Source: Escherichia coli (GTDB lineage Bacteria > Pseudomonadota > Gammaproteobacteria > Enterobacterales > Enterobacteriaceae). Taken from it: a stretch of DNA of 64,000 nt. Where the stretch lies: NCBI RefSeq assembly GCF_044647545.1, contig NZ_CP172818.1. One strand, written 5' to 3'. How positions within the stretch are numbered: the stretch's first letter is position 1; each line of letters starts with the position of its first letter. A program made the translations under genes and the position numbers. Shown here piece by piece: positions 8,528 to 56,369 of this stretch. Under the pieces are notes generated by a model. The model saw nothing but the letters and a program-made list of their open reading frames with translations, was not told where the DNA came from and made no database searches.

Positions 8528-8583
8528 TGATTTCGGAAAAAGGCAGATTCCTTTAGCCTGAAACCGATGACAGAAGCAAAAAT

Positions 8584-27299: not shown

Positions 27300-27908
27300 T
27301 TACCACGAAAACAGCGGCCATTCTTTGGCGACTGTGGTGAGTTGTGGCGCATCGAAAACGGCTTGTGGCGAGACCACCGTTTCCTCAAGCGGGATATTTT
27401 TGCCGTAGCGTTCTTTGAGCTTCGTCTGAACCAGCGGGTTACTAAGATCGAACTCTTTCAACTTCTGCTGTTCACCTACGCGCATCCCCAGCGCATTCTG
27501 GTAAACTTTCCACACCACTTCCGAACAGTACTGGCGATCGTCGCTCCATGAGAAGCTGAAATCATACGGTTTGCCGAGATAACGTTTTGCCGTTTGCGCC
27601 AGTTTTTGCTGTTGTTCAACACTCAGTCCGCCTTCAACGCGGCGAACAACGTACTTACCCTTTTCACCATGGGCGATCCACTGCTTGAGCGGGGTGTATT
27701 TCACCGGGCCGACCGCTTCAAAAACGTAGGGCTTTTTGTTGCGTATCACCAGCATACCGGTGTGGCTGTAATCGGAATGGGTCGCCAGTTGGATCGCTTT
27801 ACTTTGCGATGAGCGAGAGATCTGAAAGATGATGTCGCCGGTTTGTGGTTGCCAGGCAAATGCAGGCACAGAAACCAGCAGGCCGGGGATCAGTAGCCTG
27901 ATTTTCAT
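27300..27908 (-). CDS. yiiX: putative peptidoglycan peptidase / lipid-binding hydrolase YiiX
   Basis: 202-aa ORF MKIRLLIPGLLVSVPAFAWQPQTGDIIFQISRSSQSKAIQLATHSDYSHTG... with signal peptide. Confidence 0.9.
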   Translation of the reverse strand: MKIRLLIPGLLVSVPAFAWQPQTGDIIFQISRSSQSKAIQLATHSDYSHTGMLVIRNKKPYVFEAVGPVKYTPLKQWIAHGEKGKYVVRRVEGGLSVEQQQKLAQTAKRYLGKPYDFSFSWSDDRQYCSEVVWKVYQNALGMRVGEQQKLKEFDLSNPLVQTKLKERYGKNIPLEETVVSPQAVFDAPQLTTVAKEWPLFSW

Positions 27909-27926
27909 AGTTAAACGTCCATGTAT

Positions 27927-27957
27927 GAAAAAAGCGGCTGGTTAACTCCGCGCCGCT
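27927..27957 (-). terminator. candidate rho-independent terminator of metJ
   Basis: Reverse strand hairpin agcggc-(13 nt loop)-gccgct followed by T6, just downstream of metJ stop. Confidence 0.5.
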
Positions 27958-27967
27958 CTTTTCCGTT

Positions 27968-28285
27968 TTAGTATTCCCACGTCTCCGGGTTAATCCCCAT
28001 CTCACGCATGATCTCTTTTGCCGCTTCCGGGATTTCGTCGCTGCGCTCTTTACGCAGGTCGGCATCATCCGGCAGAGGTTGCCCGGTAAAGGCATGCAGA
28101 AACGCTTCGCACAGCAGCTCGCTGTTGGTCGCGTGACGCAGGTTGTTCACCTGACGACGCGTGCGTTCATCGGTGAGGATTTTTAACACCTTAAGAGGAA
28201 TGGAAACCGTAATCTTTTTGACTTGTTCACTCTTCTTGCCGTGCTCAGCGTATGGGCTGATATATTCGCCGCTCCATTCAGCCAT
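27968..28285 (-). CDS. metJ: methionine repressor MetJ
   Basis: ORF 27968..28423; start at ATG 28285 ([35 protein letters not shown]...) gives 105 aa. Confidence 0.96.
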
Positions 28286-28473
28286 GAGATACTTAATCCT
28301 CTTCGTCAATAAATTGAGACCAGACCACACAGTTAATGTGGGTACTGACCGTAAACCCGCATAGTTTACCGTACAGGCGTTACCGTGACATCGTGTAATG
28401 CACCTGTCGGCGTGATAATGCATATAATTTTAACGGCTATTTGAGATTTGCTCAATCTATACGCAAAGAAGTT

Positions 28474-28506
28474 TAGATGTCCAGATGTATTGACGTCCAT
28501 TAACAC
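28474..28506. promoter_or_regulatory. tandem MetJ boxes in metJ/metB divergent control region
   Basis: agatgtcc-agatgtat-tgacgtcc-attaacac, tandem 8-bp repeats resembling the met box AGACGTCT. Confidence 0.7.
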
Positions 28507-28561
28507 AATGTTTACTCTGGTGCCTGACATTTCACCGACCAAGCCCAGGGAACTTCATCAC

Positions 28562-29722
28562 ATGACGCGTAAACAGGCCACCATCGCAGTGCGTAGCGGG
28601 TTAAATGACGACGAACAGTATGGTTGCGTTGTCCCTCCCATCCATCTTTCCAGCACCTATAACTTTACCGGATTTAATGAACCGCGCGCGCATGATTACT
28701 CGCGTCGTGGCAACCCAACGCGCGATGTGGTTCAGCGTGCGCTGGCAGAACTGGAAGGCGGTGCCGGTGCCGTACTTACTAATACCGGCATGTCCGCGAT
28801 TCACCTGGTCACTACCGTCTTTTTGAAACCTGGCGATCTGCTGGTTGCGCCACACGACTGCTACGGAGGTAGCTATCGCCTGTTCGACAGCCTGGCGAAA
28901 CGCGGTTGCTATCGCGTGTTGTTTGTTGATCAAGGCGATGAACAAGCATTACGGGCAGCGCTGGCAGAAAAACCCAAACTGGTACTGGTAGAAAGCCCAA
29001 GTAATCCATTGTTACGCGTCGTGGATATTGCGAAAATCTGCCATCTGGCAAGGGAAGTCGGGGCGGTGAGCGTGGTGGATAACACCTTCTTAAGCCCGGC
29101 ATTACAAAATCCGCTGGCATTAGGTGCCGATCTGGTGTTGCATTCATGCACGAAATATCTGAACGGTCACTCAGACGTGGTGGCCGGCGTGGTGATTGCT
29201 AAAGATCCGGACGTTGTCACTGAACTTGCCTGGTGGGCAAACAATATTGGCGTGACGGGCGGCGCGTTTGACAGCTATCTGCTGCTACGTGGTTTGCGAA
29301 CGCTGGTGCCGCGTATGGAGCTGGCCCAGCGCAACGCGCAGGCGATTGTGAAATATCTACAAACCCAGCCGTTGGTGAAAAAACTGTATCACCCGTCGCT
29401 GCCGGAAAATCAGGGGCATGAAATTGCCGCGCGCCAGCAAAAAGGCTTTGGCGCAATGTTGAGTTTTGAACTGGATGGCGATGAGCAGACGCTGCGTCGT
29501 TTCCTGGGTGGGCTGTCGTTGTTTACGCTGGCGGAATCATTAGGGGGGGTGGAAAGTTTAATCTCTCACGCCGCAACCATGACACATGCAGGCATGGCAC
29601 CAGAAGCGCGTGCTGCCGCCGGGATCTCCGAGACGCTGCTGCGTATCTCCACCGGTATTGAAGATGGCGAAGATTTAATTGCCGACCTGGAAAATGGCTT
29701 CCGGGCTGCAAACAAGGGGTAA
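28562..29722 (+). CDS. metB: cystathionine gamma-synthase
   Basis: ORF 28448..29722; start at ATG 28562 (MTRKQATIAVRSGLNDDEQYGCVVPPIHLSSTYNF...) gives 386 aa. Confidence 0.97.
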   Translation: MTRKQATIAVRSGLNDDEQYGCVVPPIHLSSTYNFTGFNEPRAHDYSRRGNPTRDVVQRALAELEGGAGAVLTNTGMSAIHLVTTVFLKPGDLLVAPHDCYGGSYRLFDSLAKRGCYRVLFVDQGDEQALRAALAEKPKLVLVESPSNPLLRVVDIAKICHLAREVGAVSVVDNTFLSPALQNPLALGADLVLHSCTKYLNGHSDVVAGVVIAKDPDVVTELAWWANNIGVTGGAFDSYLLLRGLRTLVPRMELAQRNAQAIVKYLQTQPLVKKLYHPSLPENQGHEIAARQQKGFGAMLSFELDGDEQTLRRFLGGLSLFTLAESLGGVESLISHAATMTHAGMAPEARAAAGISETLLRISTGIEDGEDLIADLENGFRAANKG

Positions 29723-29724
29723 AA

Positions 29725-32157
29725 ATGAGTGTGATTGCGCAGGCAGGGGCGAAAGGTCGTCAACTGCATAAATTTGGTGGCAGTAGTCTGGCTGATGTGA
29801 AGTGTTATTTGCGTGTCGCGGGCATTATGGCGGAGTACTCTCAGCCTGACGATATGATGGTGGTTTCCGCCGCCGGTAGCACCACTAACCAGTTGATTAA
29901 CTGGTTGAAACTAAGCCAGACCGATCGTCTCTCTGCGCATCAGGTTCAACAAACGCTGCGTCGTTATCAGTGCGATCTGATTAGCGGCCTGCTACCCGCT
30001 GAAGAAGCCGATAGCCTCATTAGCGCTTTTGTCAGCGATCTGGAACGCCTGGCGGCGCTGCTCGACAGCGGTATTAACGATGCGGTGTATGCGGAAGTGG
30101 TGGGCCACGGTGAAGTGTGGTCGGCGCGCCTGATGTCTGCGGTACTTAATCAACAAGGGCTGCCAGCGGCCTGGCTTGATGCCCGCGAGTTTTTACGCGC
30201 TGAACGCGCCGCGCAGCCGCAGGTTGATGAAGGGCTTTCTTACCCGTTGCTGCAACAGCTACTGGTACAACATCCGGGCAAACGTCTGGTGGTGACCGGG
30301 TTTATCAGCCGTAACAACGCCGGTGAAACGGTGCTGCTGGGGCGTAACGGTTCCGACTATTCCGCGACACAAATCGGTGCGCTGGCGGGTGTTTCTCGCG
30401 TAACCATCTGGAGCGACGTCGCCGGGGTATATAGCGCCGACCCGCGTAAAGTGAAAGATGCCTGCCTGCTGCCGTTGCTGCGTCTTGATGAAGCCAGTGA
30501 ACTGGCGCGTCTGGCGGCCCCCGTTCTTCACGCCCGTACTTTACAGCCAGTATCCGGTAGTGAAATCGACCTGCAACTGCGCTGTAGCTACACGCCGGAT
30601 CAAGGTTCCACGCGCATTGAACGCGTGCTGGCTTCCGGTACTGGCGCGCGTATTGTCACCAGCCACGATGATGTCTGTTTGATTGAGTTTCAGGTGCCTG
30701 CCAGTCAGGATTTCAAACTGGCGCATAAAGAGATCGACCAAATCCTGAAACGTGCTCAGGTGCGCCCACTGGCGGTTGGCGTACATAACGATCGCCAGTT
30801 GCTGCAATTTTGCTACACCTCGGAAGTGGCCGATAGTGCGCTGAAAATTCTCGACGAAGCGGGATTACCTGGCGAACTGCGCCTGCGTCAGGGGCTGGCG
30901 CTGGTGGCGATGGTTGGGGCGGGCGTAACCCGTAACCCGCTGCATTGCCACCGCTTCTGGCAGCAACTGAAAGGCCAGCCGGTCGAATTTACCTGGCAGT
31001 CCGATGACGGCATCAGCCTGGTGGCAGTACTGCGCACCGGGCCGACCGAAAGCCTGATTCAGGGTCTGCATCAGTCCGTCTTTCGCGCGGAAAAACGCAT
31101 CGGCCTGGTATTGTTCGGCAAGGGCAATATCGGTTCCCGCTGGCTGGAACTGTTCGCCCGTGAGCAGAGCACGCTTTCGGCGCGTACCGGCTTTGAATTT
31201 GTGCTGGCAGGCGTGGTGGACAGCCGCCGCAGCCTGTTGAGCTATGACGGGCTGGACGCCAGCCGCGCGTTAGCCTTCTTCAACGATGAAGCGGTCGAGC
31301 AGGATGAAGAGTCGCTGTTCCTGTGGATGCGCGCCCATCCGTATGATGATTTAGTGGTGCTGGACGTTACCGCCAGCCAGCAGCTTGCTGATCAGTATCT
31401 CGATTTTGCCAGCCACGGTTTCCACGTCATCAGCGCCAACAAACTGGCGGGAGCCAGCGACAGCAATAAATATCGCCAGATCCACGACGCCTTCGAAAAA
31501 ACCGGGCGTCACTGGCTGTACAATGCCACTGTCGGTGCGGGTTTGCCGATCAACCATACCGTGCGCGATCTGATCGACAGCGGCGATACCATTTTGTCGA
31601 TCAGTGGGATCTTCTCTGGCACGCTCTCCTGGCTGTTCCTGCAATTCGACGGTAGCGTGCCGTTTACCGAGCTGGTGGATCAGGCGTGGCAGCAGGGCTT
31701 AACCGAGCCTGATCCGCGTGATGACCTTTCCGGCAAAGACGTGATGCGCAAGCTGGTGATTCTGGCGCGTGAAGCGGGTTACAACATTGAACCGGACCAG
31801 GTGCGTGTTGAATCACTGGTGCCAACCCATTGCGAAGGTGGAAGCATCGACCATTTCTTTGAAAATGGCGATGAACTTAATGAGCAGATGGTACAACGGT
31901 TGGAAGCGGCCCGTGAAATGGGGCTGGTGTTGCGCTACGTGGCGCGTTTCGATGCCAACGGCAAAGCGCGAGTAGGCGTGGAAGCGGTGCGAGAAGACCA
32001 TCCGCTGGCATCACTACTACCGTGCGATAACGTCTTTGCCATCGAAAGCCGCTGGTATCGCGACAACCCGCTGGTGATCCGCGGGCCAGGTGCAGGGCGC
32101 GATGTCACCGCCGGGGCGATTCAGTCGGATATTAACCGTCTGGCGCAGTTGTTGTAA
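29725..32157 (+). CDS. metL: bifunctional aspartokinase II / homoserine dehydrogenase II
   Basis: 810-aa ORF MSVIAQAGAKGRQLHKFGGSSLADVKCYLRVAGIMAEY...; 2-bp spacer after metB. Confidence 0.97.
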   Translation: MSVIAQAGAKGRQLHKFGGSSLADVKCYLRVAGIMAEYSQPDDMMVVSAAGSTTNQLINWLKLSQTDRLSAHQVQQTLRRYQCDLISGLLPAEEADSLISAFVSDLERLAALLDSGINDAVYAEVVGHGEVWSARLMSAVLNQQGLPAAWLDAREFLRAERAAQPQVDEGLSYPLLQQLLVQHPGKRLVVTGFISRNNAGETVLLGRNGSDYSATQIGALAGVSRVTIWSDVAGVYSADPRKVKDACLLPLLRLDEASELARLAAPVLHARTLQPVSGSEIDLQLRCSYTPDQGSTRIERVLASGTGARIVTSHDDVCLIEFQVPASQDFKLAHKEIDQILKRAQVRPLAVGVHNDRQLLQFCYTSEVADSALKILDEAGLPGELRLRQGLALVAMVGAGVTRNPLHCHRFWQQLKGQPVEFTWQSDDGISLVAVLRTGPTESLIQGLHQSVFRAEKRIGLVLFGKGNIGSRWLELFAREQSTLSARTGFEFVLAGVVDSRRSLLSYDGLDASRALAFFNDEAVEQDEESLFLWMRAHPYDDLVVLDVTASQQLADQYLDFASHGFHVISANKLAGASDSNKYRQIHDAFEKTGRHWLYNATVGAGLPINHTVRDLIDSGDTILSISGIFSGTLSWLFLQFDGSVPFTELVDQAWQQGLTEPDPRDDLSGKDVMRKLVILAREAGYNIEPDQVRVESLVPTHCEGGSIDHFFENGDELNEQMVQRLEAAREMGLVLRYVARFDANGKARVGVEAVREDHPLASLLPCDNVFAIESRWYRDNPLVIRGPGAGRDVTAGAIQSDINRLAQLL

Positions 32158-32178
32158 TTTCAGTACTCTAAAATGCCC

Positions 32179-32227
<49 letters not shown>

Positions 32228-32245
32228 GCATGTATTTGAACGGCG

Positions 32246-32274
32246 TTTAAAATGGTTTTAAATGAAACTATAAT
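32246..32274 (+). promoter_or_regulatory. promoter-like element TTTAAA-N17-TATAAT facing the T-depleted tract
   Basis: Perfect -10 hexamer TATAAT at 32269..32274 with TTTAAA 17 bp upstream; no evidence of use. Confidence 0.3.
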
Positions 32275-32377
32275 GCGGTAACGATAGGTATTGAAACGCG
32301 TGATGAAATTAAATGCTACAACGTTATACGACGAACTCAAAGGCAAGGTGATTTGACTTCCTGATCACGAAGTGTTC

Positions 32378-32925
32378 CGGCCCGGCAGCCAAAAGGGGGG
32401 AAAAAGCGGCGCGGAAAAAAAAAAAGCGGGAGGGGAAAGGGGGGATAACCGGGGAGCAAAGGCGGCGAAAGCGAAAAACAAAACGCAAACCCACAAACGG
32501 AGGGGGGCGAAAGGAGAACAAAAAGAAAAGGCGAAAGAAAAAAACGCAAAACCAACGCGACGAGGAAGGCCCAACCGGCAAAAAAAAAAGCAACGACGGA
32601 AAAAAAAGTGAGAAGTGGCAACAAACGGCGCGCAACGCGAAAAAACGTCAGGAACGCCCCAGGAAGGGGTGAGCGGGGCGGGGGGGAAAAACCACCACGC
32701 AACAGCGCGGGAGCCGGGGGGGAGAGGCGCCACACAAACGAAGAAGAAGGGAAAAAAAAAAGGAGGGGGGAGAAAGGAAAAGGGAAAAAAGAACGACACA
32801 ACGGGGGCGGGGAAACAAGAACCAAAGAGCGCCAAAACAGGAAGGACACAAGGAAAGCGCGTAAACAAGGGCGGATACAAACAAACGGAAACCACAGAGA
32901 ACAGACAAGGAGGAAAAAAAAACCA
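32378..32925 (+). repeat. T-depleted low-complexity tract (A/G/C only, about half A)
   Basis: Only 7 T in about 548 nt by direct count; many G3-G7 and A5-A10 runs; all six frames open because stop codons cannot occur. Confidence 0.9.
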
Positions 32926-33229
32926 ATAAAGTACGTGTTGAGTTGATTTTCATTTGTTTGTTACCCAGTTGATTTTGCATATCCAGTATTCGGCCTACGC
33001 GAGGGCGCAGGCCGAATCAGATGTCTTACAACAACAATCCGGTGCGACACGTTGTTTTTCGAAGAAGCCCAGGGTCCGTGTTCAGAATAACAGCAAAAAG
33101 GGGGAGGGGATGCGGCACAAAAAAAATCTTTTATCGCCTCTAATTAAGATGAAGTTTTTTCAACTTCCCTGATTTTTCCTCACCATCATTGGTCATTTTT
33201 CGGTTGACGCCCCTCGGCTTTTCCTTCAT

Positions 33230-33270
33230 CTTTACATCTGGACGTCTAAATGGATAGATGTTCACAACAC
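33230..33270 (+). promoter_or_regulatory. metF promoter with MetJ boxes
   Basis: acatctggacgtctaaatggatagatgttcac contains tandem met-box-like octamers including gGACGTCT; putative -35 ttgacg at 33205..33210. Confidence 0.65.
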
Positions 33271-33301
33271 AACATATAACTACAAGCGATTGATGAGGTA
33301 A

Positions 33302-34195
<894 letters not shown>

Positions 34196-34469
34196 ATAGT
34201 GTGGCTTTTGTGAAAATCACACAGTGATCACAAATTTTAAACAGAGCACAAAATGCTGCCTCGAAATGAGGGCGGGAAAATAAGGTTGTCAGCCTTGTTT
34301 TCTCCCTCATTACTTGACGGATATGAAGCTAAAACCCTTTTTTATAAAGCATTTGTCCGAATTCGGACATAATCAAAAAAGCTTAATTACGATCAATTTG
34401 ATCTACATCTCTTTAACCAACAATATGTAAGATCTCAACTATCGCATCCGTGGATTAATTCAATTATAA

Positions 34470-36704
<2,235 letters not shown>

Positions 36705-36712
36705 TCTGACCT

Positions 36713-36754
36713 TCTTCAGCGACTGCCTTTCAGGCAGTCGCTGAAGTTTCTTTA
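36713..36754 (+). terminator. rho-independent terminator of katG
   Basis: Long perfect hairpin cttcagcgactgcc-tttc-aggcagtcgctgaag followed by tttcttt. Confidence 0.85.
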
Positions 36755-36797
36755 CCGGCGTATAGTGTCCACAGGAAAACTACACACTGGATCTCTC

Positions 36798-37703
36798 ATG
36801 TCTGCCGCAGGAAAGAGCAACCCACTGGCAATCAGTGGCCTGGTTGTGCTCACACTTATCTGGAGTTATAGCTGGATTTTCATGAAGCAAGTCACCAGCT
36901 ACATCGGTGCCTTCGACTTTACCGCCTTACGCTGCATTTTCGGCGCTCTCGTTTTATTCATCGTCCTTTTATTACGTGGTCGCGGAATGCGCCCGACACC
37001 GTTTAAATACACCTTAGCCATTGCCCTGTTACAAACCTGCGGGATGGTCGGCCTGGCGCAGTGGGCGCTGGTCAGCGGAGGAGCGGGGAAGGTGGCAATC
37101 CTGAGCTATACCATGCCGTTCTGGGTGGTGATTTTCGCCGCGTTGTTTCTCGGTGAACGCCTGCGACGTGGGCAATATTTCGCGATTCTGATTGCCGCTT
37201 TCGGCTTATTTTTGGTGTTGCAGCCGTGGCAACTCGATTTCTCTTCGATGAAAAGCGCCATGCTGGCAATCCTCTCCGGTGTGAGTTGGGGGGCGAGCGC
37301 GATTGTTGCTAAACGTCTGTATGCCCGCCATCCGCGCGTGGATTTATTGTCGCTAACATCCTGGCAGATGCTGTATGCGGCGCTGGTGATGAGCGTGGTC
37401 GCTTTACTGGTGCCGCAACGTGAAATTGACTGGCAACCCACCGTGTTCTGGGCGCTGGCCTACAGTGCGATTCTGGCGACAGCGCTGGCGTGGAGCTTAT
37501 GGTTGTTTGTATTGAAAAACTTGCCTGCCAGTATTGCCAGCTTAAGCACACTGGCCGTTCCCGTTTGCGGCGTACTCTTTTCCTGGTGGCTGCTCGGTGA
37601 GAATCCGGGGGCCGTTGAAGGTAGCGGTATTGTGCTGATTGTGCTGGCACTGGCGCTGGTGAGCCGTAAGAAAAAAGAAGCTGTCAGTGTAAAAAACATC
37701 TGA
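36798..37703 (+). CDS. yijE: EamA/DMT-family inner-membrane transporter YijE (reported cystine exporter)
   Basis: ORF 36765..37703; start at ATG 36798 ([30 protein letters not shown]...) gives 301 aa. Confidence 0.9.
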
Positions 37704-37729
37704 ATTTTTTCTTCATGTGGGGCGATCGC

Positions 37730-38347
37730 TTATTTAACAAAATACCGATAGTGCCCCACCATCCGCCAGCTAAACAGCACGTCTTCTTCCTGCGCGCCTG
37801 CGCCAATGTTATGTATCACCAGCGGCGTACCGTCGCGGGCGAAGCCATCTGACACCACCCCAATATGTGCCAGCCCGTTATCTAATCGCCAGGAGACAAT
37901 ATCGCCCGATTGATAGTCACTGGGGTTCTTGCTGGTGGGGCGTGTTTTATCGTGGCGGGTAAACCAGGTTTCCAGATTAGGCACCCGACGGTGATCGATG
38001 TTGCTGTCCGGGCGCTTTAACTGCCATTTTTGCGGGTACGCAGCAAAATTCTTCGCCATATCTTCGTGCACCAGTTTCTGCAAATCGACCTTCTGGCTGC
38101 GCAATGCACGGATCACCACATCGGAACATACGCCGCGTTCTTGCGGGACATCACCGCCAGGATAGGTAAGCTGCACATACGCCGGATCGTAAAATAGCGT
38201 GCTGCCGATTTGCTGTCTGGCACCGTCTGCGATGGCAAGGTTGGTGTTGGCCTGGATCTGTACCACGGTTGGTGGAACGGCGGGAGATTTTAAGGAGTGG
38301 CTGGTAAATGCCGTTAGCAGGCTGACCAGCACCAGTGAAGCTTTCAT
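37730..38347 (-). CDS. yijF: DUF1287-family secreted protein YijF
   Basis: 205-aa ORF MKASLVLVSLLTAFTSHSLKSPAVPPTVVQIQ... with signal peptide. Confidence 0.9.
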   Translation of the reverse strand: MKASLVLVSLLTAFTSHSLKSPAVPPTVVQIQANTNLAIADGARQQIGSTLFYDPAYVQLTYPGGDVPQERGVCSDVVIRALRSQKVDLQKLVHEDMAKNFAAYPQKWQLKRPDSNIDHRRVPNLETWFTRHDKTRPTSKNPSDYQSGDIVSWRLDNGLAHIGVVSDGFARDGTPLVIHNIGAGAQEEDVLFSWRMVGHYRYFVK

Positions 38348-38490
38348 CTGGTTCGTCCGTGAAAATAAGAGTCACAGATTCGACCTTCCGGGCTAACGAT
38401 TGTTCTGTAGAGAAAATGTCCAGAAGCGGATAAAAAATTCCTGAACAACGTGGGAGTTTCAGACATAACTATAAAAATCTCAACACCCCT

Positions 38491-38565
38491 TTGGGAGAGA
38501 GTCAGGGTGAGGAGGAACAGGCCAGCTCCGGGGCGAATAATCACCCTCACCCCGACCCTCTCCCT
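38491..38565. repeat. imperfect inverted repeat in yijF-gldA spacer
   Basis: gggagagagtcagggtgagg at 38491..38510 pairs with ccctcaccccgaccctctccc at 38545..38565 across a ~34-nt loop; family not identified. Confidence 0.5.
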
Positions 38566-38657
38566 GAAAGGGCGAGGGGGAAAAACATGCCCGCAGTGAC
38601 GAGTGAGCCACTTTGCCTGATCTCAAACTCCCGGACAAGCCGGGAGTTTGGAGTAGG

Positions 38658-39761
38658 TTATTCCCATTCTTGCAGGAAACGCTGGCCATACTGGTCGGCT
38701 ACCAGCAGTGCGGCGTAAACCTGATCTGGCGTTGCACCGCCTGGCATGTTGTGAATGGTTTCACCTTCTGCACATGCCGCTTCTGCCACAATTCGCATTT
38801 TCGCCGGGACATCTTCTTTAATATCCAGTTGAGCGAGCGTTATTGGCAAACCTACCGCATGGCTAAGCGCAGCTACGGTTTCGATTTCCTCCACCGGCGC
38901 GTTTTCCAGAACCAGCTGCGTCAGCGTACCGAATGCCACTTTTTCACCATGATAATAGTGATGCGCGTCCGGGATAGCGGTCAGGCCGTTATGTACCGCG
39001 TGTGCCGCCGCCAGCCCGCCGCTTTCAAAACCAACACCGCTCAAATAGGTGTTCGCTTCAATCACGCGTTCCAGCGCCGGAGTCACTACATGCTGTTCGG
39101 CGGCAAGCATCGCTTTTTCGCCTTCTTCCAGCAGAGTGTTGTAGCACAGTTCTGCCAGTGCCAGCGCCGCCTGGGTGCACTTGCCGCCCGCCATGGTGGT
39201 CGCGCCGCTACGAGAGCAAGCACGCGCTTCAAACCAGGTTGCCAGCGCATCGCCGATACCCGCCGCTAACAGACGTGCAGGTGCGCCAGCGACGATTTTG
39301 GTGTCGACAATGACCATATTCGGGTTATTTGGCAACAGCAGATAGCGGTCAAACTCACCCTCATCGGTGTAGATAACAGACAATGCGCTGCATGGTGCAT
39401 CGGTAGAGGCGATAGTCGGTGCGATCGCTACCGGAACACCCATGAAATGTGCCAGTGCTTTGGCAGTATCGAGGGTTTTTCCGCCACCGATACCGAGAAT
39501 TGCGCCACACTGCGCAGTCTCCGCGATGCCACGCAGACGGTCGATCTCATTTTGCGAACATTCACCGCCAAACGGCGCAATTTCTACTACCAGTCCAGCA
39601 TCTTTAAAACTTTTCTCGACAGTGGATTGAGCAAAACCTAAAACAAATTTGTCACCCACCACTAACCAGCGTTCTGCCAGCGGCTTCAGGTATTCGCCCA
39701 GACGATTAATCACATCAGCGCCCTGGATGTATTTACCCGGTGATTGAATAATGCGGTCCAT
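38658..39761 (-). CDS. gldA: glycerol dehydrogenase
   Basis: ORF 38658..39800; start at ATG 39761 ([32 protein letters not shown]...) gives 367 aa. Confidence 0.96.
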
Positions 39762-39771
39762 AATTGCTCCT

Positions 39772-40434
39772 TTAGAGATGAGTAGTGCCAAATGCGGCAT
39801 TCCAGTCGTTTTCGAACTTCTCTATAGCTGACTCTACCGCAGGGGTGTTGAGCATTTGTTGCGCTACATCTAAGGGCAGGGTGATGGATTCACATCCTGC
39901 CAGTAAACAGTCCAGCGCCTGACGCGGCGTTTTAAAGCTGGCTGCCAGCACCATGCTTTCTGGCGCGTGCATTTCCAACAGCGCTTGCAGCTCCTGAACC
40001 GTACGAATGCCGTCCCCGCCCTGGGCGTCGACGCGGTTAACATACGGAGCAACATATTTTGCCCCTGCCAGCGCGGCTAATAACCCTTGTGCGGCGCTAT
40101 ATACAGCGGTGCCAAGTGTAGTAATACCCTCTTTTTTCAGCATTTTAATGGCGGCAAGACCTTCGGAAGTTACCGGGATTTTCACCACAATGCCCGGAAT
40201 GGCGTCGCGCAGGCGCTTCGCTTCTTCCACCATACCCTGCGCGTCACGACTCATGGTCTGAGCAAACAAAATACCCTCATCACCAATCGCTTTTTGCAAA
40301 CGCGGCAGCACTTCCCAGATGGACTCCTTGCTGGCCGCGATAATGCTCGGGTTAGTTGTCACCCCGGCAATCGGGAATATGCGTGCCAGACGTTCGACTT
40401 CTGCGACGTTAGCGGTGTCCAGATACAGTTCCAT
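39772..40434 (-). CDS. fsaB: fructose-6-phosphate aldolase 2
   Basis: 220-aa [45 protein letters not shown]... Confidence 0.95.
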
Positions 40435-40445
40435 GATGTTTCCTT

Positions 40446-42947
40446 TTACAGTTCCAGTTCATGTTGCAGCAGGCTGGCGATAGCGTCGGCAGAGGCGGCG
40501 TTAACCAGCGCGTTACGGAATTCTTCGTGCATGATGCGACGAGCGAGGCGCGAGAAAATGCGCATGTGCTGATCGCCCGCAGCGTGTTTGTTCAGGGTTA
40601 ACATAATGATGAATTGCGCTTCATCATCGCCCCAGCGCACCGGCGCTGCCAGACGCGCCACGCTGATGGTGGATTGCTCAATGTGTTCTGATTTGCTGTG
40701 GGGAATGGCAAAACTAAAGCCCAGACCGGTAGAGAAAACGGCCTCGCGCGCCCACAAGTCGGCTTCCAGTTTACGCGGATAGCGACAGCGGCCCGCCAGC
40801 AGCAGGTTATCGGTCATGCCTTTGAGCACTTCTTCTTTGCTGCGCCAGTCGCTTTCCAGTGTGATGCACTCGGCGGTGACCAGCGGGGCGTCCTGTTGGG
40901 TCATGCGGAATTGCGCCAGCAGGTGTTCCACTTCTAGCGAAGTACGGCAGGCCATTGCCTGGTTGAGCAACTGGCGGCACTCACGGCTATCAAGTTGCGC
41001 CATTCGCGCTTTCGCCGCCGGAATTGACGGTGCGCTCATGCTCAGCTCATCCAGCCCTAAACCGACCAGCAATGGCAGCACGGAACCTTTCGCTCCCAGT
41101 TCACCGCACAGACCAATCCATTTGCCCTGGCGATGCACCGCCTGCACGGCGTAATCGAGCGCCCGCAAGAATGCTGGATTCAGGCTGTTATAGTGACGAG
41201 TAACCTTAGCGTTATCGCGATCCACTGCTAGCAGATATTGCGTCAGGTCATTACTACCGATACTAAAGAAATCAATCTCTTCGCAGCATTGATCGATGAT
41301 GAACATCACCGACGGCACTTCCAGCATGATGCCGAGCTGGATCTTCTCATCAAACGGAATGTGTTCGTTACGCAGTTGCTGTTTGGCTTCCGCCAGTTTT
41401 TCTTTTACCCATAAGATCTCTTCCATTGAAGAGATCATCGGGATCATAATTTTCAGGCTGCCGTGAGCGGAGGCACGGAGAATCGACCGTAGTTGTGTGG
41501 TAAATAACGACGCGTACTCTTCATAAATACGCACGGCGCGATAACCGAGGAACGGGTTTGCCTCTGCGGGAATGTTCAGATAATCAACGGGTTTGTCACC
41601 GCCAATATCCATAGTGCGCACAATAATGCTGCGTCCGTTGGCGGACTCCAGCGCCTGACAAAAAATGTTGTACAGCTCGCTTTCGCCCGGTGCACTGGTG
41701 CGATCCATATAGAGCATTTCAGTGCGGAATAAACCAACGCCTTCCGCACCATTGCCGAATGCGGCCTGCGCTTCCACGGAGTGAGCGATGTTAGCAGCAA
41801 TTTCAATGCGGATACCGTCAGCAGTACGGGCTTGTTGGGTCAGCCAGACACGCTGTTGCTCACGCAGAGCGTCCTGTACGCGGGCTTCTTGCTGATAATA
41901 ACGGGCCACGGATTCCCCTGGCTCAACCACAATCGCCCCTGCGTTGCCGTCGATATAAATCGTTTGATGCTGCCACGGAGTGAGGGCATCAATATCCACA
42001 CCAACCAGCGTCGGAATGTTGAACGAACGGGCAAGGATCACCGTATGTGAGGTGGTGCCGCCGCTTTTGAGCAACAATCCTTTGAGGTGATTTTTATCCA
42101 GTTCGAGGAACTGGCTGGGGGTCAGTTCATCAGCCATACAAATGGCGGGCTGCGTCAGTTTGCCCGGTGCCGGGAAGCGTTGCTCACCGTAGATTTGCTG
42201 GAGTAACTGGAAGCAGACGTCGCGTACGTCCAGGGCACGTTCTTGCAGGTAGCTGCTGCTGGAACGGGCGAACTCTTCGCAGAAGTGGTGTGCACTGGCA
42301 ACAATCGCTTCGGCACAGCTTAATCCGGCGCTGACACCTGCCAGTAAATGTTCGCGCAGGGAAGTATCGCCAGCCAGGGATCGGTGCGCTTCCAGAATCG
42401 CGCTGGTAGCACCGTCGCTATCCAGCAGACGAAACTCTATGTTTTTCAGTACCAGCGTCAGACCGTTTTCCAGTGCGGATTGTTCGGCGTCAACGCCTTT
42501 GGCTGCGGGAAGATTACCCAGCGCATTGAGATCTAAAGAAGAGATCGGCGTCAGAATGCCGCCTGCGCTACCGCTGCACACGGTGCGGGCACGGATAATT
42601 TGCGGATTCAGATTGGTCAGTGAAACCGGCAGTGGTTCCAGTTCGTCAGATTTTACTTCCGCCAGCGGTGCGTCGCAGTGGGGGAATTCATCGCGCAGCC
42701 ATTGGCTTAAACGCTGGTGCGCTTCCTGTTCGTCGGCCCCGGAAATCAGTAACTGGCAGTTATCGCCCACCAGCGTATCGGTGCCAATCAGCGCAAGGGC
42801 GCTTTTGGCGTTGCCCTTGCGGTCAGTGCGCAGGTTATGCCACTCAATTTGTGATGAAAAAGTATTACACAGCGTTTCAACGTGGCTTGCCGGACGCGCA
42901 TGGACGCCGTTAGGTAGCTCACAAATAAATTCCACAATCAGGGCCAT
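40446..42947 (-). CDS. ptsA: multiphosphoryl transfer protein PtsA/FrwA (EI-like, HPr-like and EIIA-like domains)
   Basis: 833-aa [33 protein letters not shown]... carrying HPr-like N-terminus and PEP-utilizing enzyme region. Confidence 0.93.
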
Positions 42948-43255
42948 TGCCTTTCTCCCGGTACGGTTTTCTGTTTACAGGATAAGAGCGCACGGCAACG
43001 GCCTACCATGTGACAAATCTGCCAAAAGCTGGACAAATGTAATGTAACCGTCAATTTGCGACGCGTCTCACAAGACGCCGTTTTGCGGTGTACTTCCGGA
43101 TTATCGCAAGTTATGAGGCGGATCGCATTTTTGTACTGATATTACAAAAGTCCAGTAAATGGCCTTTTTATCCACTGTTTGCTCCGCCTGCGATTGCCTA
43201 TTGTTTCTTCCATCAAAAATATGGACATGGGCTTTCGCAAGCCCGGGAGCAGCTT

Positions 43256-44335
43256 ATGAATGAGTTGGTGCAGATCCTGAAAAATACTCGTCAGCATTTA
43301 ATGACGGGCGTTTCACACATGATTCCCTTCGTGGTATCGGGCGGTATTTTGCTGGCGGTTTCCGTCATGTTGTATGGCAAAGGCGCAGTGCCGGATGCCG
43401 TCGCCGATCCGAATCTGAAAAAACTGTTTGATATCGGCGTTGCAGGTTTGACGCTGATGGTGCCTTTCCTCGCCGCTTACATCGGTTATTCCATTGCAGA
43501 GCGTTCTGCGCTGGCTCCGTGCGCTATCGGTGCCTGGGTTGGTAACAGCTTTGGTGCGGGCTTCTTTGGTGCACTGATCGCCGGGATTATCGGCGGCATC
43601 GTGGTGCATTACCTGAAGAAAATTCCGGTGCATAAAGTTCTGCGCTCGGTGATGCCCATCTTCATCATTCCGATCGTCGGCACACTGATTACCGCAGGCA
43701 TCATGATGTGGGGTCTGGGCGAGCCTGTAGGGGCGTTGACCAACAGCCTGACTCAGTGGCTTCAGGGGATGCAGCAGGGCAGCATTGTTATGCTGGCGGT
43801 GATCATGGGTCTGATGCTGGCGTTCGATATGGGTGGTCCGGTTAACAAAGTGGCCTATGCCTTCATGCTGATTTGCGTTGCTCAGGGTGTATATACCGTG
43901 GTGGCCATTGCTGCCGTGGGTATTTGTATCCCGCCGCTGGGGATGGGGTTGGCGACGCTGATTGGTCGTAAAAATTTCTCCGCAGAAGAGCGCGAAACCG
44001 GCAAAGCGGCGCTGGTGATGGGGTGCGTTGGGGTTACTGAAGGGGCGATTCCTTTCGCCGCTGCCGATCCGTTACGTGTCATTCCTTCCATCATGGTCGG
44101 TTCTGTTTGTGGTGCGGTAACTGCGGCACTGGTCGGTGCACAGTGCTATGCAGGCTGGGGTGGTCTGATTGTGCTGCCGGTGGTTGAAGGCAAGCTGGGT
44201 TATATCGCAGCAGTGGCTGTCGGAGCAGTGGTGACGGCTGTTTGTGTGAACGTGCTGAAAAGTCTGGCGCGTAAAAATGGGTCTTCGACTGATGAAAAAG
44301 AAGACGACCTGGATTTGGATTTTGAAATTAATTAA
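43256..44335 (+). CDS. frwC: fructose-like PTS permease EIIC component
   Basis: ORF 43088..44335; start at ATG 43256 (MNELVQILKNTRQHLMTGVSHMIPFVVSGGILLAV...) gives 359 aa. Confidence 0.93.
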   Translation: MNELVQILKNTRQHLMTGVSHMIPFVVSGGILLAVSVMLYGKGAVPDAVADPNLKKLFDIGVAGLTLMVPFLAAYIGYSIAERSALAPCAIGAWVGNSFGAGFFGALIAGIIGGIVVHYLKKIPVHKVLRSVMPIFIIPIVGTLITAGIMMWGLGEPVGALTNSLTQWLQGMQQGSIVMLAVIMGLMLAFDMGGPVNKVAYAFMLICVAQGVYTVVAIAAVGICIPPLGMGLATLIGRKNFSAEERETGKAALVMGCVGVTEGAIPFAAADPLRVIPSIMVGSVCGAVTAALVGAQCYAGWGGLIVLPVVEGKLGYIAAVAVGAVVTAVCVNVLKSLARKNGSSTDEKEDDLDLDFEIN

Positions 44336-44349
44336 TTGAGGAACGAGCC

Positions 44350-44670
44350 ATGACGAAAATTATTGCAGTAACCGCGTGTCCATCTGGTGTTGCCCATACC
44401 TATATGGCGGCAGAGGCGCTGGAAAGTGCCGCGAAAGCGAAAGGCTGGGAAGTGAAAGTAGAAACCCAGGGCTCGATTGGTCTGGAAAATGAACTGACTG
44501 CGGAAGACGTGGCGAGCGCCGATATGGTGATTCTGACCAAAGATATCGGCATCAAGTTTGAAGAGCGTTTTGCTGGCAAGACCATCGTGCGCGTCAACAT
44601 CAGCGACGCGGTAAAACGCGCTGATGCCATTATGAGCAAAATTGAAGCTCACCTGGCACAAACCGCTTAA
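44350..44670 (+). CDS. frwB: fructose-like PTS EIIB component
   Basis: 106-aa ORF MTKIIAVTACPSGVAHTYMAAEALESAAKAKGWEVKVETQGS... Confidence 0.94.
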   Translation: MTKIIAVTACPSGVAHTYMAAEALESAAKAKGWEVKVETQGSIGLENELTAEDVASADMVILTKDIGIKFEERFAGKTIVRVNISDAVKRADAIMSKIEAHLAQTA

Positions 44671-44678
44671 GTTCTTAT

Positions 44679-44696
44679 CCCGCCCGTAAGGGCGGG
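44679..44696 (+). terminator. hairpin after frwB (possible attenuator/terminator, weak T-run)
   Basis: cccgccc-gtaa-gggcggg followed by ttcgctttccc. Confidence 0.35.
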
Positions 44697-44720
44697 TTCG
44701 CTTTCCCACAGGAGTTCCTC

Positions 44721-47018
44721 ATGACGAATCGTATCTCTCGCCTCAAAACTGCACTGTTTGCCAATACCCGTGAAATCTCGCTGGAGCGGGCGCTGCTTTA
44801 TACCGCCAGCCATCGGCAAACCGAAGGCGAACCGGTGATATTGCGCCGGGCGAAAGCAACAGCGTATATCCTTGAACATGTTGAAATTTCGATTCGTGAT
44901 GAAGAACTGATTGCCGGTAACCGCACCGTAAAACCACGCGCCGGGATTATGTCGCCGGAAATGGACCCTTACTGGCTGCTGAAAGAGCTGGATCAATTCC
45001 CGACGCGTCCGCAGGACCGCTTTGCTATCAGCGAAGAAGATAAACGTATCTACCGCGAAGAGTTGTTCCCGTACTGGGAAAAACGTTCGATGAAAGATTT
45101 CATTAACGGGCAGATGACGGATGAAGTAAAAGCCGCGACCAGCACGCAGATTTTCAGCATCAACCAGACGGATAAAGGCCAGGGGCACATTATTATTGAT
45201 TACCCGCGCCTGCTGAATCACGGGCTGGGTGAGCTGGTAGCGCAAATGCAGCAACATTGTCAGCAACAGCCGGAGAATCACTTTTATCAGGCCGCGTTGT
45301 TACTGCTGGAAGCCTCGCAGAAACACATTTTGCGTTACGCCGAACTGGCGGAAACGATGGCGGCAAACTGCACAGATGCCCAGCGTCGCGAAGAGCTGCT
45401 GACTATTGCGGAGATCTCCCGCCATAACGCGCAACATAAGCCGCAGACGTTCTGGCAGGCGTGCCAGTTATTCTGGTACATGAACATCATTCTGCAATAC
45501 GAATCCAACGCCAGTTCGCTGTCTTTAGGGCGCTTCGACCAGTATATGTTGCCGTTCTATCAGGCATCTTTAACCCTGGGCGAAGATCCGGCGTTCCTGA
45601 AAGAACTGCTCGAATCTTTATGGGTGAAATGCAACGACATCGTGCTGTTGCGCTCCACCAGCAGCGCGCGTTATTTCGCCGGTTTCCCGACCGGCTATAC
45701 CGCACTGCTCGGCGGTTTAACCGAGAATGGACGTAGCGCGGTGAACGTGCTTTCGTTCCTCTGCCTCGATGCTTATCAAAGCGTGCAATTACCGCAACCG
45801 AACCTCGGCGTGCGCACTAACGCCTTGATCGACACGCCGTTCCTGATGAAAACCGCAGAAACCATTCGCCTCGGCACCGGTATTCCGCAAATCTTTAACG
45901 ATGAAGTGGTAGTGCCAGCGTTCCTCAACCGTGGCGTTTCGCTGGAAGATGCGCGCGACTATTCCGTAGTGGGCTGTGTGGAATTATCTATTCCCGGCAG
46001 AACCTACGGTCTGCATGACATTGCGATGTTTAACTTGCTGAAAGTGATGGAAATCTGCCTGCATGAAAATGAAGGCAATGCTGCGCTGACTTATGAAGGT
46101 TTACTGGAGCAGATCCGCGCCAAGATCAGCCACTACATCACCCTGATGGTTGAGGGCAGCAATATTTGTGATATCGGCCATCGCGACTGGGCACCTGTAC
46201 CGCTACTCTCGTCTTTTATCAGCGATTGTCTGGAAAAAGGCCGCGATATTACCGATGGCGGTGCGCGTTATAACTTCTCCGGCGTACAGGGGATCGGTAT
46301 CGCCAACCTGAGCGATTCTCTCCATGCGTTGAAAGGTATGGTTTTTGAGCAACAGCGTTTAAGTTTTGACGAATTGCTGTCGGTATTAAAAGCCAACTTC
46401 GCAACGCCAGAAGGCGAAAAAGTCCGTGCTCGCTTAATTAACCGCTTCGAGAAATACGGTAACGATATCGACGAGGTGGATAACATCAGCGCCGAACTGT
46501 TGCGCCACTACTGCAAAGAAGTGGAAAAATACCAGAACCCGCGCGGCGGTTACTTCACGCCGGGATCGTATACCGTTTCTGCTCACGTCCCGTTGGGATC
46601 GGTGGTTGGCGCGACGCCAGACGGTCGTTTTGCCGGAGAACAGCTGGCAGACGGCGGCTTGTCACCCATGCTGGGCCAGGACGCACAAGGGCCAACGGCG
46701 GTACTGAAGTCAGTCAGTAAGCTCGATAATACGCTGCTGTCTAACGGTACGTTGCTGAACGTGAAATTCACTCCGGCGACCCTGGAAGGTGAAGCGGGAT
46801 TACGCAAACTGGCCGACTTCTTACGGGCGTTTACCCAGCTTAAGTTGCAGCATATTCAGTTTAACGTGGTGAACGCCGACACGTTGCGGGAAGCGCAACA
46901 GCGCCCACAAGATTATGCCGGGCTGGTGGTGCGCGTTGCCGGATACAGCGCCTTCTTTGTCGAATTGTCGAAGGAGATCCAGGATGACATCATCCGCCGG
47001 ACAGCGCATCAGCTGTAA
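44721..47018 (+). CDS. pflD: glycyl-radical enzyme (pyruvate formate-lyase paralogue) PflD
   Basis: 765-aa ORF MTNRISRLKTALFANTREISLERALLYTASHRQTEGEPVI...; C-terminal glycyl-radical motif region RVAGYSAFF. Confidence 0.95.
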   Translation: MTNRISRLKTALFANTREISLERALLYTASHRQTEGEPVILRRAKATAYILEHVEISIRDEELIAGNRTVKPRAGIMSPEMDPYWLLKELDQFPTRPQDRFAISEEDKRIYREELFPYWEKRSMKDFINGQMTDEVKAATSTQIFSINQTDKGQGHIIIDYPRLLNHGLGELVAQMQQHCQQQPENHFYQAALLLLEASQKHILRYAELAETMAANCTDAQRREELLTIAEISRHNAQHKPQTFWQACQLFWYMNIILQYESNASSLSLGRFDQYMLPFYQASLTLGEDPAFLKELLESLWVKCNDIVLLRSTSSARYFAGFPTGYTALLGGLTENGRSAVNVLSFLCLDAYQSVQLPQPNLGVRTNALIDTPFLMKTAETIRLGTGIPQIFNDEVVVPAFLNRGVSLEDARDYSVVGCVELSIPGRTYGLHDIAMFNLLKVMEICLHENEGNAALTYEGLLEQIRAKISHYITLMVEGSNICDIGHRDWAPVPLLSSFISDCLEKGRDITDGGARYNFSGVQGIGIANLSDSLHALKGMVFEQQRLSFDELLSVLKANFATPEGEKVRARLINRFEKYGNDIDEVDNISAELLRHYCKEVEKYQNPRGGYFTPGSYTVSAHVPLGSVVGATPDGRFAGEQLADGGLSPMLGQDAQGPTAVLKSVSKLDNTLLSNGTLLNVKFTPATLEGEAGLRKLADFLRAFTQLKLQHIQFNVVNADTLREAQQRPQDYAGLVVRVAGYSAFFVELSKEIQDDIIRRTAHQL

Positions 47019-47862
47019 CGTTGTGGAAACGCGCCGCGATGATGTGGCGCGCATTTTCAACATTCAGCGTTATTCACTGAATGACGGCGAGGGCATTCGT
47101 ACGGTGGTCTTTTTTAAAGGCTGTCCGCATCTTTGCCCGTGGTGTGCTAATCCGGAGTCGATCTCCGGCAAAATCCAGACTGTACGCAGAGAGGCGAAAT
47201 GTCTGCACTGTGCGAAATGTTTGCGTGATGCGGATGAATGCCCCTCCGGTGCGTTTGAACGGATTGGTCGCGATATCAGCCTTGACGCTCTGGAACGGGA
47301 AGTGATGAAAGATGACATTTTCTTTCGCACGTCCGGCGGCGGCGTCACGCTTTCTGGCGGCGAAGTGTTAATGCAGGCGGAGTTTGCTACCCGTTTTTTA
47401 CAGCGGCTGCGGTTGTGGGGCGTGTCATGCGCCATTGAAACCGCCGGAGACGCGCCAGCCAGCAAGCTGTTACCGCTGGCGAAATTGTGCGATGAAGTGT
47501 TGTTCGATTTAAAAATTATGGACGCGACTCAGGCGCGGGATGTGGTGAAGATGAACCTGCCACGCGTGCTGGAGAATCTGCGTTTGCTGGTGAGTGAGGG
47601 CGTCAACGTGATCCCGCGTTTACCGCTGATCCCTGGTTTCACGCTCAGCCGGGAGAATATGCAGCAGGCGCTGGACGTGCTGATCCCGCTGAATATCAGG
47701 CAGATCCATCTGTTACCGTTTCATCAGTACGGCGAACCGAAATACCGCCTGCTGGGGAAAACATGGTCGATGAAAGAGGTGTCTGCGCCGTCGTCAGCCG
47801 ATGTGACAACGATGCGCGAAATGGCAGAACGGGCCGGATTTCAGGTTACCGTGGGAGGTTAA
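46984..47862 (+). CDS. pflC: glycyl-radical enzyme activating protein (radical SAM) PflC
   Basis: ORF 46915..47862; start at ATG 46984 (MTSSAGQRISCNVVETRRDDVARIFNIQRYSLNDGEGIRTVVFFKGCPHLCPWC...) gives 292 aa; overlaps pflD end. Confidence 0.93.
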   Translation: MTSSAGQRISCNVVETRRDDVARIFNIQRYSLNDGEGIRTVVFFKGCPHLCPWCANPESISGKIQTVRREAKCLHCAKCLRDADECPSGAFERIGRDISLDALEREVMKDDIFFRTSGGGVTLSGGEVLMQAEFATRFLQRLRLWGVSCAIETAGDAPASKLLPLAKLCDEVLFDLKIMDATQARDVVKMNLPRVLENLRLLVSEGVNVIPRLPLIPGFTLSRENMQQALDVLIPLNIRQIHLLPFHQYGEPKYRLLGKTWSMKEVSAPSSADVTTMREMAERAGFQVTVGG

Positions 47863-47863
47863 A

Positions 47864-48205
47864 ATGGCATACCTGGTGGCAGTAACCGCCTGCGTAAGCG
47901 GCGTGGCGCATACTTATATGGCGGCGGAACGGCTGGAAAAGTTGTGCCAGTTAGAGAAGTGGGGCGTCAGCATTGAAACTCAGGGCGCGCTGGGAACGGA
48001 GAATCGTTTAGCGGACGAGGATATCCGTCGGGCGGATGTTGCTCTGTTGATTACGGATATCGAGCTTGCCGGTGCCGAGCGATTTGAACATTGCCGCTAC
48101 GTGCAATGCAGCATCTACGCTTTCCTGCGTGAGCCGCAGCGGGTGATGAGCGCGGTACGCAAAGTGCTTTCTGCGCCGCAGCAAATCCATCTTATTCTGG
48201 AGTAG
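47864..48205 (+). CDS. frwD: fructose-like PTS EIIB component 2
   Basis: 113-aa ORF MAYLVAVTACVSGVAHTYMAAERLEKLCQLEKWGVSIETQGALG... Confidence 0.94.
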   Translation: MAYLVAVTACVSGVAHTYMAAERLEKLCQLEKWGVSIETQGALGTENRLADEDIRRADVALLITDIELAGAERFEHCRYVQCSIYAFLREPQRVMSAVRKVLSAPQQIHLILE

Positions 48206-49043
48206 TCGGTTTTTCTGTCAGTTGGCTGTGGTACTGCCGACGATATTCCGACGGTGAGCGTTCGGTATTTTTACGAAACAGACGGCAGAAGTAGTTGCTG
48301 TCGACAAAGCCGCAGGCGTGCGCCACTTCTTTTACCTTCAGGTCATAGCCTTTCAATAACGTCTTAGCGTGCTCCAGTCGCGTGTGATTCAGGTATTCGT
48401 TAAAACCAATGGCCCCCGTTTTTTGAAACAGGTGCGAGAGGTAATTTGGCGAAATATAGAATGCCTGTGCGACAGATTCGCGGGTAAGCGCGGAGGCATA
48501 GCGTTCGTCGATATAATCGCGAATAGCTTCGAATAGAGCCTGGCTACGTGAGGCGGTCTGGATTTGGCTGCCGAGCAAATCGCGGCAGTGGCTAAGCAGG
48601 CTGGCGACGATAAGCCTTGCCGTTTGCTGCTCCTGCGACTGCATTTGCATTTCATTGAGCGTTTGTAGCAGAAAAGAACCTATGCGTGGGCCGCGTCGGG
48701 CGACGTGTTGCTTCGCCAGATTTTGATATTGTTTGCCATCCCATTGCACGACGCTGAAGCCGAGTTGCTGTTTGCCAAACAGCACGCTAAAGGTCGTGGC
48801 GGGGGCTTGCCATTGTGGAAAATTCCAGCCACCAGCGGGAACGTACAGCACATCGCCGGGAACTAACGTTGCTCCAGCGCCGGTATCAACAAACTCACCT
48901 TCCAGCACAATTTCCAGTCGTGGAAAATCGACCTGATACGCAAGATCGGGCACCGGGCCGTTGCTGCTGGCAAAGTAAATCTGGCGCAGGGACAGCGGGC
49001 CGTTGATCAGGCGGGAGAGCAGATAGCTGACGTCGTGATACAT
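48192..49043 (-). CDS. yijO: AraC-family transcriptional regulator YijO
   Basis: 283-aa ORF MYHDVSYLLSRLINGPLSLRQIYFASSNGP... with C-terminal AraC-type HTH; 14-bp convergent overlap with frwD. Confidence 0.9.
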   Translation of the reverse strand: MYHDVSYLLSRLINGPLSLRQIYFASSNGPVPDLAYQVDFPRLEIVLEGEFVDTGAGATLVPGDVLYVPAGGWNFPQWQAPATTFSVLFGKQQLGFSVVQWDGKQYQNLAKQHVARRGPRIGSFLLQTLNEMQMQSQEQQTARLIVASLLSHCRDLLGSQIQTASRSQALFEAIRDYIDERYASALTRESVAQAFYISPNYLSHLFQKTGAIGFNEYLNHTRLEHAKTLLKGYDLKVKEVAHACGFVDSNYFCRLFRKNTERSPSEYRRQYHSQLTEKPTTPE

Positions 49044-49190
49044 GTTATTCCCTTAGCTATGTAGACGGGAAAACAGTAACTGGCATTATGAAAAAAGGCC
49101 ACCTGAAAAGTGTGGCCTGAGGGGAGTGCGATGTAAACATTGCGGCAGATCGCATCCGGCAAATAGCGCCAGACGCGATACAAAGGTCAT

Positions 49191-50924: not shown

Positions 50925-51106
50925 AGTAAGAACCTGTCTTGAAAAAAATATCGCCGAATGTAACGACAATTCCTTAAGGATATCTGAAGGTGTATTCAGA
51001 ATTTGAATAAAATGCAGACAGAAATATATTGAAAACGAAGGTGTTAGAACAGAAGTATTTCAGAAAACCCTCGCGCAAAAGCACGAGGGTTTGCAGGAGA
51101 GGAAGA

Positions 51107-53758: not shown

Positions 53759-54008
53759 ATTACCCCAGACACCCCATCTTATCGTTTGATAGCCCTGTAT
53801 CCTTCACGTCGCATTGGCGCGAATATGCTCGGGCTTTGCTTTTCGTCGTCTTTTATAAAGCCACGTAAAAGCGGTGACGTCAAATGCTGCGAAATCGCTT
53901 CAGCAAACGAATAAATAGCAGGAATTTACGCCATTAAATTCACGACGCTTTAAATAAGCGTAACTTATGGGAATGTTAAAAAATCGCCTCGAGTAACACC
54001 AAAGGTGT

Positions 54009-54047
54009 AGGTCGGATAAGATGCGCAAGCATCGCATCCGATGGCCT
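54009..54047. repeat. REP unit between ppc and argE
   Basis: ggtcggataagatgcgcaagcatcgcatccgatggcc palindromic REP-like sequence. Confidence 0.75.
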
Positions 54048-54052
54048 ACGTT

Positions 54053-55204: not shown

Positions 55205-55228
55205 TGTTGACACACCTCTGGTCATGAT

Positions 55229-55270
55229 AGTATCAATATTCATGCAGTATTTATGAATAAAAATACACTA
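55229..55270. promoter_or_regulatory. ARG boxes (ArgR operators) in argE/argCBH divergent promoter
   Basis: tatcaatattcatgcagtatttatgaataaaaatacac contains two adjacent 18-bp elements resembling the ARG box TNTGAATWWWWATTCANW. Confidence 0.7.
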
Positions 55271-55357
55271 ACGTTGAGCGTAATAAAACCCACCAGCCGT
55301 AAGGTGAATGTTTTACGTTTAACCTGGCAACCAGACATAAGAAGGTGAATAGCCCCG

Positions 55358-56362: not shown

Positions 56363-56369
56363 GGGTGCA

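Follow-up and report, generated by a model that had tools for sequence, protein, structure and literature searches.

A T-depleted tract between metL and metF in an Escherichia coli genome sequence is very probably a corrupted copy of an ordinary accessory gene

A tract of 548 nt that almost entirely lacks T on the plus strand, located at positions 32378-32925 of the 64,000-nt stretch of Escherichia coli DNA analyzed here (hereafter the window), is, as judged from sequence alignment, a T-stripped and compressed copy of an ordinary E. coli gene, formed mostly via deletion. Comparison with near-identical genomes makes it very probable that the tract represents sequence corruption or a consensus artefact, that is, a data fault rather than a biological element of the organism's DNA. 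An earlier, sequence-only reading of the window had named corrupted sequence as a possible origin, and this is the option that the evidence presented below supports.

A direct count of the tract gave 249 A (45%), 186 G, 106 C, and 7 T, the last at positions 32446, 32609, 32616, 32648, 32670, 32862, and 32876. At the window T frequency of 0.24, the probability of encountering seven or fewer T in 548 nt is 4e-54, or ~1e-48 with a generous correction for multiple tests. Sliding composition revealed an AT skew of 0.91-0.98 and a GC skew of ~0.3, as well as a minimum of 4 T per 300 nt compared with a window median of 72; the tract is the sole site of the 64 kb at which any base falls below 15 per 200 nt. 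It contains 12 A-runs of at least 5 nt and 17 G-runs of at least 3 nt. Across the six frames together five stop codons were seen where ~51 would be expected, and overlapping ORFs of 79-176 aa occupy all six frames, with K/R/G/E-rich translations on the plus strand and F/P/L/S-rich translations on the minus strand. The compositional part of the sequence-only reading therefore stands up well: our recount agrees with its figure of 7 T in ~548 nt, the strand is indeed about half A with G exceeding C and many runs of both A and G, the sliding-window check that it proposed again singles out the tract, and the low-complexity translations bear out its view that base composition, not coding, accounts for the six-frame ORFs. 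Two of its statements need qualification. Stop codons, which it held to be impossible on either strand, are strongly depleted but present, and the strand asymmetry is real but the polypurine/polypyrimidine character is not, as the tract is only 79% purine and 19% C. The triplex and G-quadruplex potential that it raised is weak given these C interruptions, and the question falls away if no such DNA exists.

We next consider where the tract sequence comes from. Global alignment of window positions 32100-33320 with the intact locus of strain FDAARGOS_497 (L001) showed the tract to be collinear with the 3'-terminal 911 nt of a metallophosphatase/5'-nucleotidase gene, through its stop codon, such that 911 nt have been reduced to 548 nt. 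Throughout the metL-metF spacer L001 is identical to the corresponding locus (L004) of strain 4973 (NZ_CP103468.1), which served as the comparison genome; in L004 coordinates the tract corresponds to ~8298-9209, or codons ~213-517 of the 517-aa protein. The LCS of the tract and the nucleotidase gene was 492/548, compared with 439 ± 3.3 for composition-matched shuffles (z ~16) and 424-425 for reversed or unrelated references. The tract keeps the native position, orientation, and base order of the gene. The fate of the reference bases in the alignment was as follows.

Reference T: 195 in the reference, 7 kept, 169 deleted
Reference C: 211 in the reference, 104 kept, 90 deleted
Reference G: 253 in the reference, 170 kept, 74 deleted
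Reference A: 250 in the reference, 210 kept, 39 deleted

In all, ~96% of the T, ~50% of the C, and ~27% of the G of the reference are missing from the tract, while A is nearly unchanged by raw count (249 in the tract vs 252 in the reference). Deletions of G and C are enriched beside T, and deletion blocks reach 15 nt; this indicates that the loss process is context-dependent, and it rules out independent per-base deletion as the sole process. Conversion of the deaminase or bisulfite type was likewise rejected, as it would substitute T to C or C to T, whereas the tract is shortened and has lost C. With 40% of its bases missing, the nucleotidase reading frame is destroyed and no frame encodes the protein.

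The tract is the most extreme part of a wider garbled zone at 32158-33154, which occupies 997 nt and replaces a 3.0-kb segment that is intact in strain 4973 (L004 6435-9444); 2.8 kb of this segment is a two-gene block bounded by the stop codons of metL and of the nucleotidase gene. The zone lies in the spacer between the metL stop (32157) and the metF start (33306), which measures ~1.15 kb in the window vs ~3.15 kb in strain 4973. The features of the locus, all given on the plus strand, are listed here.

29725-32157, plus strand: metL, intact, forming the left boundary; 100% identity to strain 4973 up to the stop codon
32158-32181, plus strand: junction remnant of 24 nt, TTTCAGTACTCTAAAATGCCCGGT, matching an internal piece of a 376-aa hypothetical gene (L004 ~6829-6851)
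32182-32224, plus strand: A43 homopolymer, a perfect run replacing ~1.3 kb of the reference (L004 ~6852-8140)
32225-32377, plus strand: middle of the nucleotidase gene (L004 ~8141-8297), moderately garbled, with T present and errors that are mainly deletions
32378-32925, plus strand: T-depleted tract, a collinear compressed copy of L004 ~8298-9209
32926-33154, plus strand: nucleotidase stop codon plus downstream intergenic sequence, lightly garbled, with 39 differences vs strain 4973 and FDAARGOS_497
33155-34196, plus strand: metF promoter region and CDS (ATG at 33306), intact, forming the right boundary; 100% identity to strain 4973 and FDAARGOS_497

The 24-nt remnant is preceded by an apparent 395-nt deletion, and it also resembles the start of the K-12-type "empty" spacer. 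Identity of 32225-32377 to the nucleotidase gene is ~85% over the part that BLAST could align, and from 33155 onward identity to both strain 4973 and FDAARGOS_497 jumps back abruptly to 100%. The A43 run belongs to the same corrupted zone as the tract; the sequence-only reading mentioned neither this run nor the full extent of the zone, nor two further garbled segments of the window that are described below. The tandem repeats that TRF detected at this locus were limited to the A43 run and a trivial 10-nt unit present twice; both lie upstream of the tract, and a repeat array or simple-sequence expansion was discarded on this basis. By inspection, a retro-copied polyadenylated transcript was also discarded, given that the A-run lies 5' rather than 3' of the sense-strand gene fragment.

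The metL-metF spacer is naturally variable, and at least three states occur in E. coli: a nearly empty spacer, as in K-12; a spacer that carries the 376-aa hypothetical gene together with the 517-aa metallophosphatase/5'-nucleotidase gene; and a spacer that carries a tsx-like gene and two nucleotidase genes. About a third of complete E. coli genomes (~1,840 of 5,426) have the nucleotidase-type spacer. The K-12-type "empty" spacer starts with a short remnant that resembles the hypothetical gene (TTTCAG...AATGCCCGG). The intact nucleotidase homolog, WP_000694759.1, is a 517-aa protein of periplasmic type with the Pfam domains Metallophos and 5_nucleotid_C; its gene shares locus, orientation, and base order with the tract, and differs from it in that no frame of the tract survives. 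The 376-aa hypothetical gene (L001 685-1815; L004 6397-7527) lies on the opposite strand and shares 37 nt with the 3' end of metL, and no Pfam hit is on record for it.

The garbled sequence does not correspond to any of these natural alleles. BLAST searches, in which the low-complexity filter may hide weak matches, returned no match to the tract in the 5,426 complete E. coli genomes, PLSDB plasmids, or INPHARED phages, in line with the earlier statement that it is unlike any E. coli element. The junction at 32136-32181 was also not found in the complete E. coli genomes (best match 89%), nor was the 235-nt segment at 32926-33160 (best match 84%), and a natural allele was rejected on these grounds. 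No partly T-depleted intermediate was present among the ~1,840 genomes with the nucleotidase gene. When 32160-32930 was searched against plasmids and phages, it matched solely a normal-composition 5'-nucleotidase fragment, which led us to reject a foreign or vector origin; the BLASTN check suggested in the sequence-only reading thus returned no artificial construct, but the comparison with genomes did recover the collinear native gene. In addition, 28 distinct translated ORFs taken from the garbled zones were all absent from a collection of ~15 billion predicted proteins, although this exact look-up is a weak test that depends on start codons.

Outside these zones the window is remarkably close to strain 4973. 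Identity is 100.000% over 1-23489, 23490-27291, 27299-32158, 33155-38463, and 60959-63547, and 38621-58580 differs solely by two junction deletions. There are zero substitutions over ~60 kb, compared with several hundred changes within the 1-kb garbled zone, and all differences are confined to 32158-33154, 38464-38620, 58581-60958, the two junction deletions, and one absent RHS/IS1 insertion. One junction deletion, at 49148, removes 1 nt (T) relative to strain 4973 at a point where K-12 has an extra REP-like insertion of 79 nt; the other, at 54041, removes 7 nt (CATTGTT) where K-12 has an extra REP-like insertion of ~300 nt. In the rpmE-yiiX spacer (27291-27299), the 7.4-kb RHS/IS1 block of strain 4973 is missing, as it is from K-12, and K-12-type empty-site sequence stands in its place; the strains may truly differ here, or a reference-guided build may have left out a long insertion.

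Two of the remaining deviations are themselves garbled. The patch at 38464-38620, between gldA and yijF, has lost every G over ~45 nt of strain 4973 sequence as well as a 9-nt block, and a few substitutions follow, while the flanks are 100% identical; the base dropped at 38464-38485 is therefore G, unlike the T dropped in the tract. At 58581-60958, between argH and oxyR, 2.38 kb stand for the 2.81-kb manD and MFS-transporter genes of strain 4973, with 64% identity to these genes, 35-45% A, mixed A-biased substitutions, and a longest ORF of at most 97 aa; the closest match to this segment in the 5,426 E. coli genomes reaches only 64.8%. Bases are retained in the order A>G>C>T in the tract and A>C>T>G at 58581-60958, with G-specific loss at 38464-38485, and no one platform error model known to us would predict these differing base losses. 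Every deviation from strain 4973 coincides with a breakpoint of collinearity with K-12 (32182|33150, 38463|38623, 49148|49150, 54041|54043, and 58604|60926). This coincidence does not prove that K-12 was used as a reference, because the deviating sites are also places where structural variation is naturally frequent.

The favored explanation, corruption of the sequence, accounts for these patterns in the following way. The anomaly derives from normal sequence at the same locus of near-identical genomes (strain 4973 and FDAARGOS_497), its divergence is limited to sharply bounded patches amid otherwise identical sequence, and it is not reproduced in the 5,426 E. coli genomes, in plasmids or phages, or in the 15 billion proteins. 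Sequence shared with a K-12-type backbone is perfect and inserted sequence is garbled, shortened, or missing, a pattern that fits a reference-guided or poorly supported consensus and not a cellular process. The corruption most likely arose during the building of the sequence rather than in the cell: the window behaves as would a consensus laid onto a K-12-type backbone, in which K-12-shared segments come out perfect, inserted segments (~2.8 kb) and variable intergenic patches would be badly reconstructed, and the 7.4-kb insertion would go missing. A plausible source would be a consensus that favors A and that was drawn from noisy or poorly aligned reads, or from a single read. The likeness to local assembly or consensus artefacts, such as unpolished insertions in reference-guided or hybrid long-read assemblies, is considerable; these too are perfect where the backbone or good reads provide support, and the zone around the tract is similarly garbled, shortened, and homopolymer-rich at an insertion, dominated by deletions, and followed by an abrupt return to 100% identity. 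The standard platform error profiles known to us differ from what we observe, however, in that they do not include the almost complete disappearance of one base across 550 nt, or a switch to another lost base at a second site (G at 38464-38485). Later file corruption or deliberate alteration is also possible and would yield the same picture.

One may postulate instead that the DNA is real and that templated, error-prone copying in vivo rewrote the accessory gene, for example by a reverse transcriptase or translesion polymerase that skipped adenines of the minus-strand template. The tract is templated and its loss is strikingly base-specific, as this scenario would have it, and adenine-specific infidelity occurs in diversity-generating retroelements (DGRs), which like the tract target one base (here A on the minus strand). 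We nevertheless regard such copying as very improbable. DGRs substitute bases, keep length, and need a reverse transcriptase and a template repeat, whereas the changes here are deletions that leave a copy 40% shorter: 911 nt have become 548 nt, and 169 of the 195 T (minus-strand A) were deleted rather than substituted. Annotation of the identical strain 4973 includes no reverse transcriptase or template repeat across this 64 kb, its genes in the region being housekeeping genes together with the Rhs/IS1 block that is missing from the window, and only one nucleotidase-like copy is present within window positions 12001-52000. Moreover, base biases differ at the two other garbled loci, 1.3 kb has given way to an A43 run, and a cell has no cause to follow the breakpoints of reference collinearity at which all of the sites fall. 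A broader version, in which all three garbled segments are physically present and reflect an unknown in vivo re-copying of accessory segments with base-specific skipping, appears slighter still; were the segments real, one candidate agent would be a polymerase, or a reverse transcriptase, skipping dA in the template, and the outcome would amount to targeted gene scrambling of a new kind.

The leading options of the sequence-only reading, namely a non-templated or biased polymerization product or inserted synthetic or vector DNA, strike us as barely credible. The extreme composition and the adjoining poly-A run would suit such an origin, but the tract follows the resident 5'-nucleotidase gene in order, at the place where that gene normally lies, with an LCS far above that of shuffled sequence, and this collinearity in our judgement refutes a non-templated or synthetic origin; in addition, no plasmid or phage matches the tract, and both of its boundaries grade into recognizable native sequence. 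The same collinearity tells against particular polymers. The poly-dA and random ssDNA made by reverse transcriptases of the AbiK/DRT type share strong strand asymmetry and A- and G-runs with the tract, as do H-DNA tracts, but a non-templated product (AbiK/DRT9-like or TdT-like) would not follow the resident gene, and the purine strand of H-DNA is uninterrupted or nearly so and usually forms a mirror repeat, whereas in the tract 106 C are scattered through a strand that is 79% purine. A functional nucleotidase is equally at odds with the data, as no frame is preserved and the ORFs of the tract are of low complexity, compared with the 517 aa of the intact homolog. Finally, a pseudogene left behind by natural decay of the accessory islet, akin to the short relic in the K-12 spacer, has next to nothing in its favor beyond the variability of this spacer, with its three or more natural states, and the short hypothetical-gene remnant kept by K-12-type genomes: no natural mutation spectrum is known to remove a given base to the extent of 96% through one-nucleotide deletions, the ~1,840 gene-carrying genomes hold no intermediate and match the adjacent 235 nt at 84% at best, and flanks with zero substitutions vs an intact-gene strain leave no time for decay. 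The absence of substitutions in the flanks against hundreds of changes of any kind within 1 kb excludes natural decay and implies that only a locus-targeted process could be real.

If the sequence is corrupted, as we believe, its consequences are chiefly a matter of data hygiene. At least three corrupted segments would give rise to spurious ORFs and to false leads to "novel elements", and the corruption would produce false calls of gene absence for the 5'-nucleotidase, the neighboring hypothetical gene, manD, and the MFS transporter. Other oddities of the same source sequence should first be compared with a close relative such as strain 4973. As biology the tract has no significance, and it would be of interest only if it were physically present; the underlying locus is an ordinary, known accessory islet between metL and metF that is misrepresented in the file.
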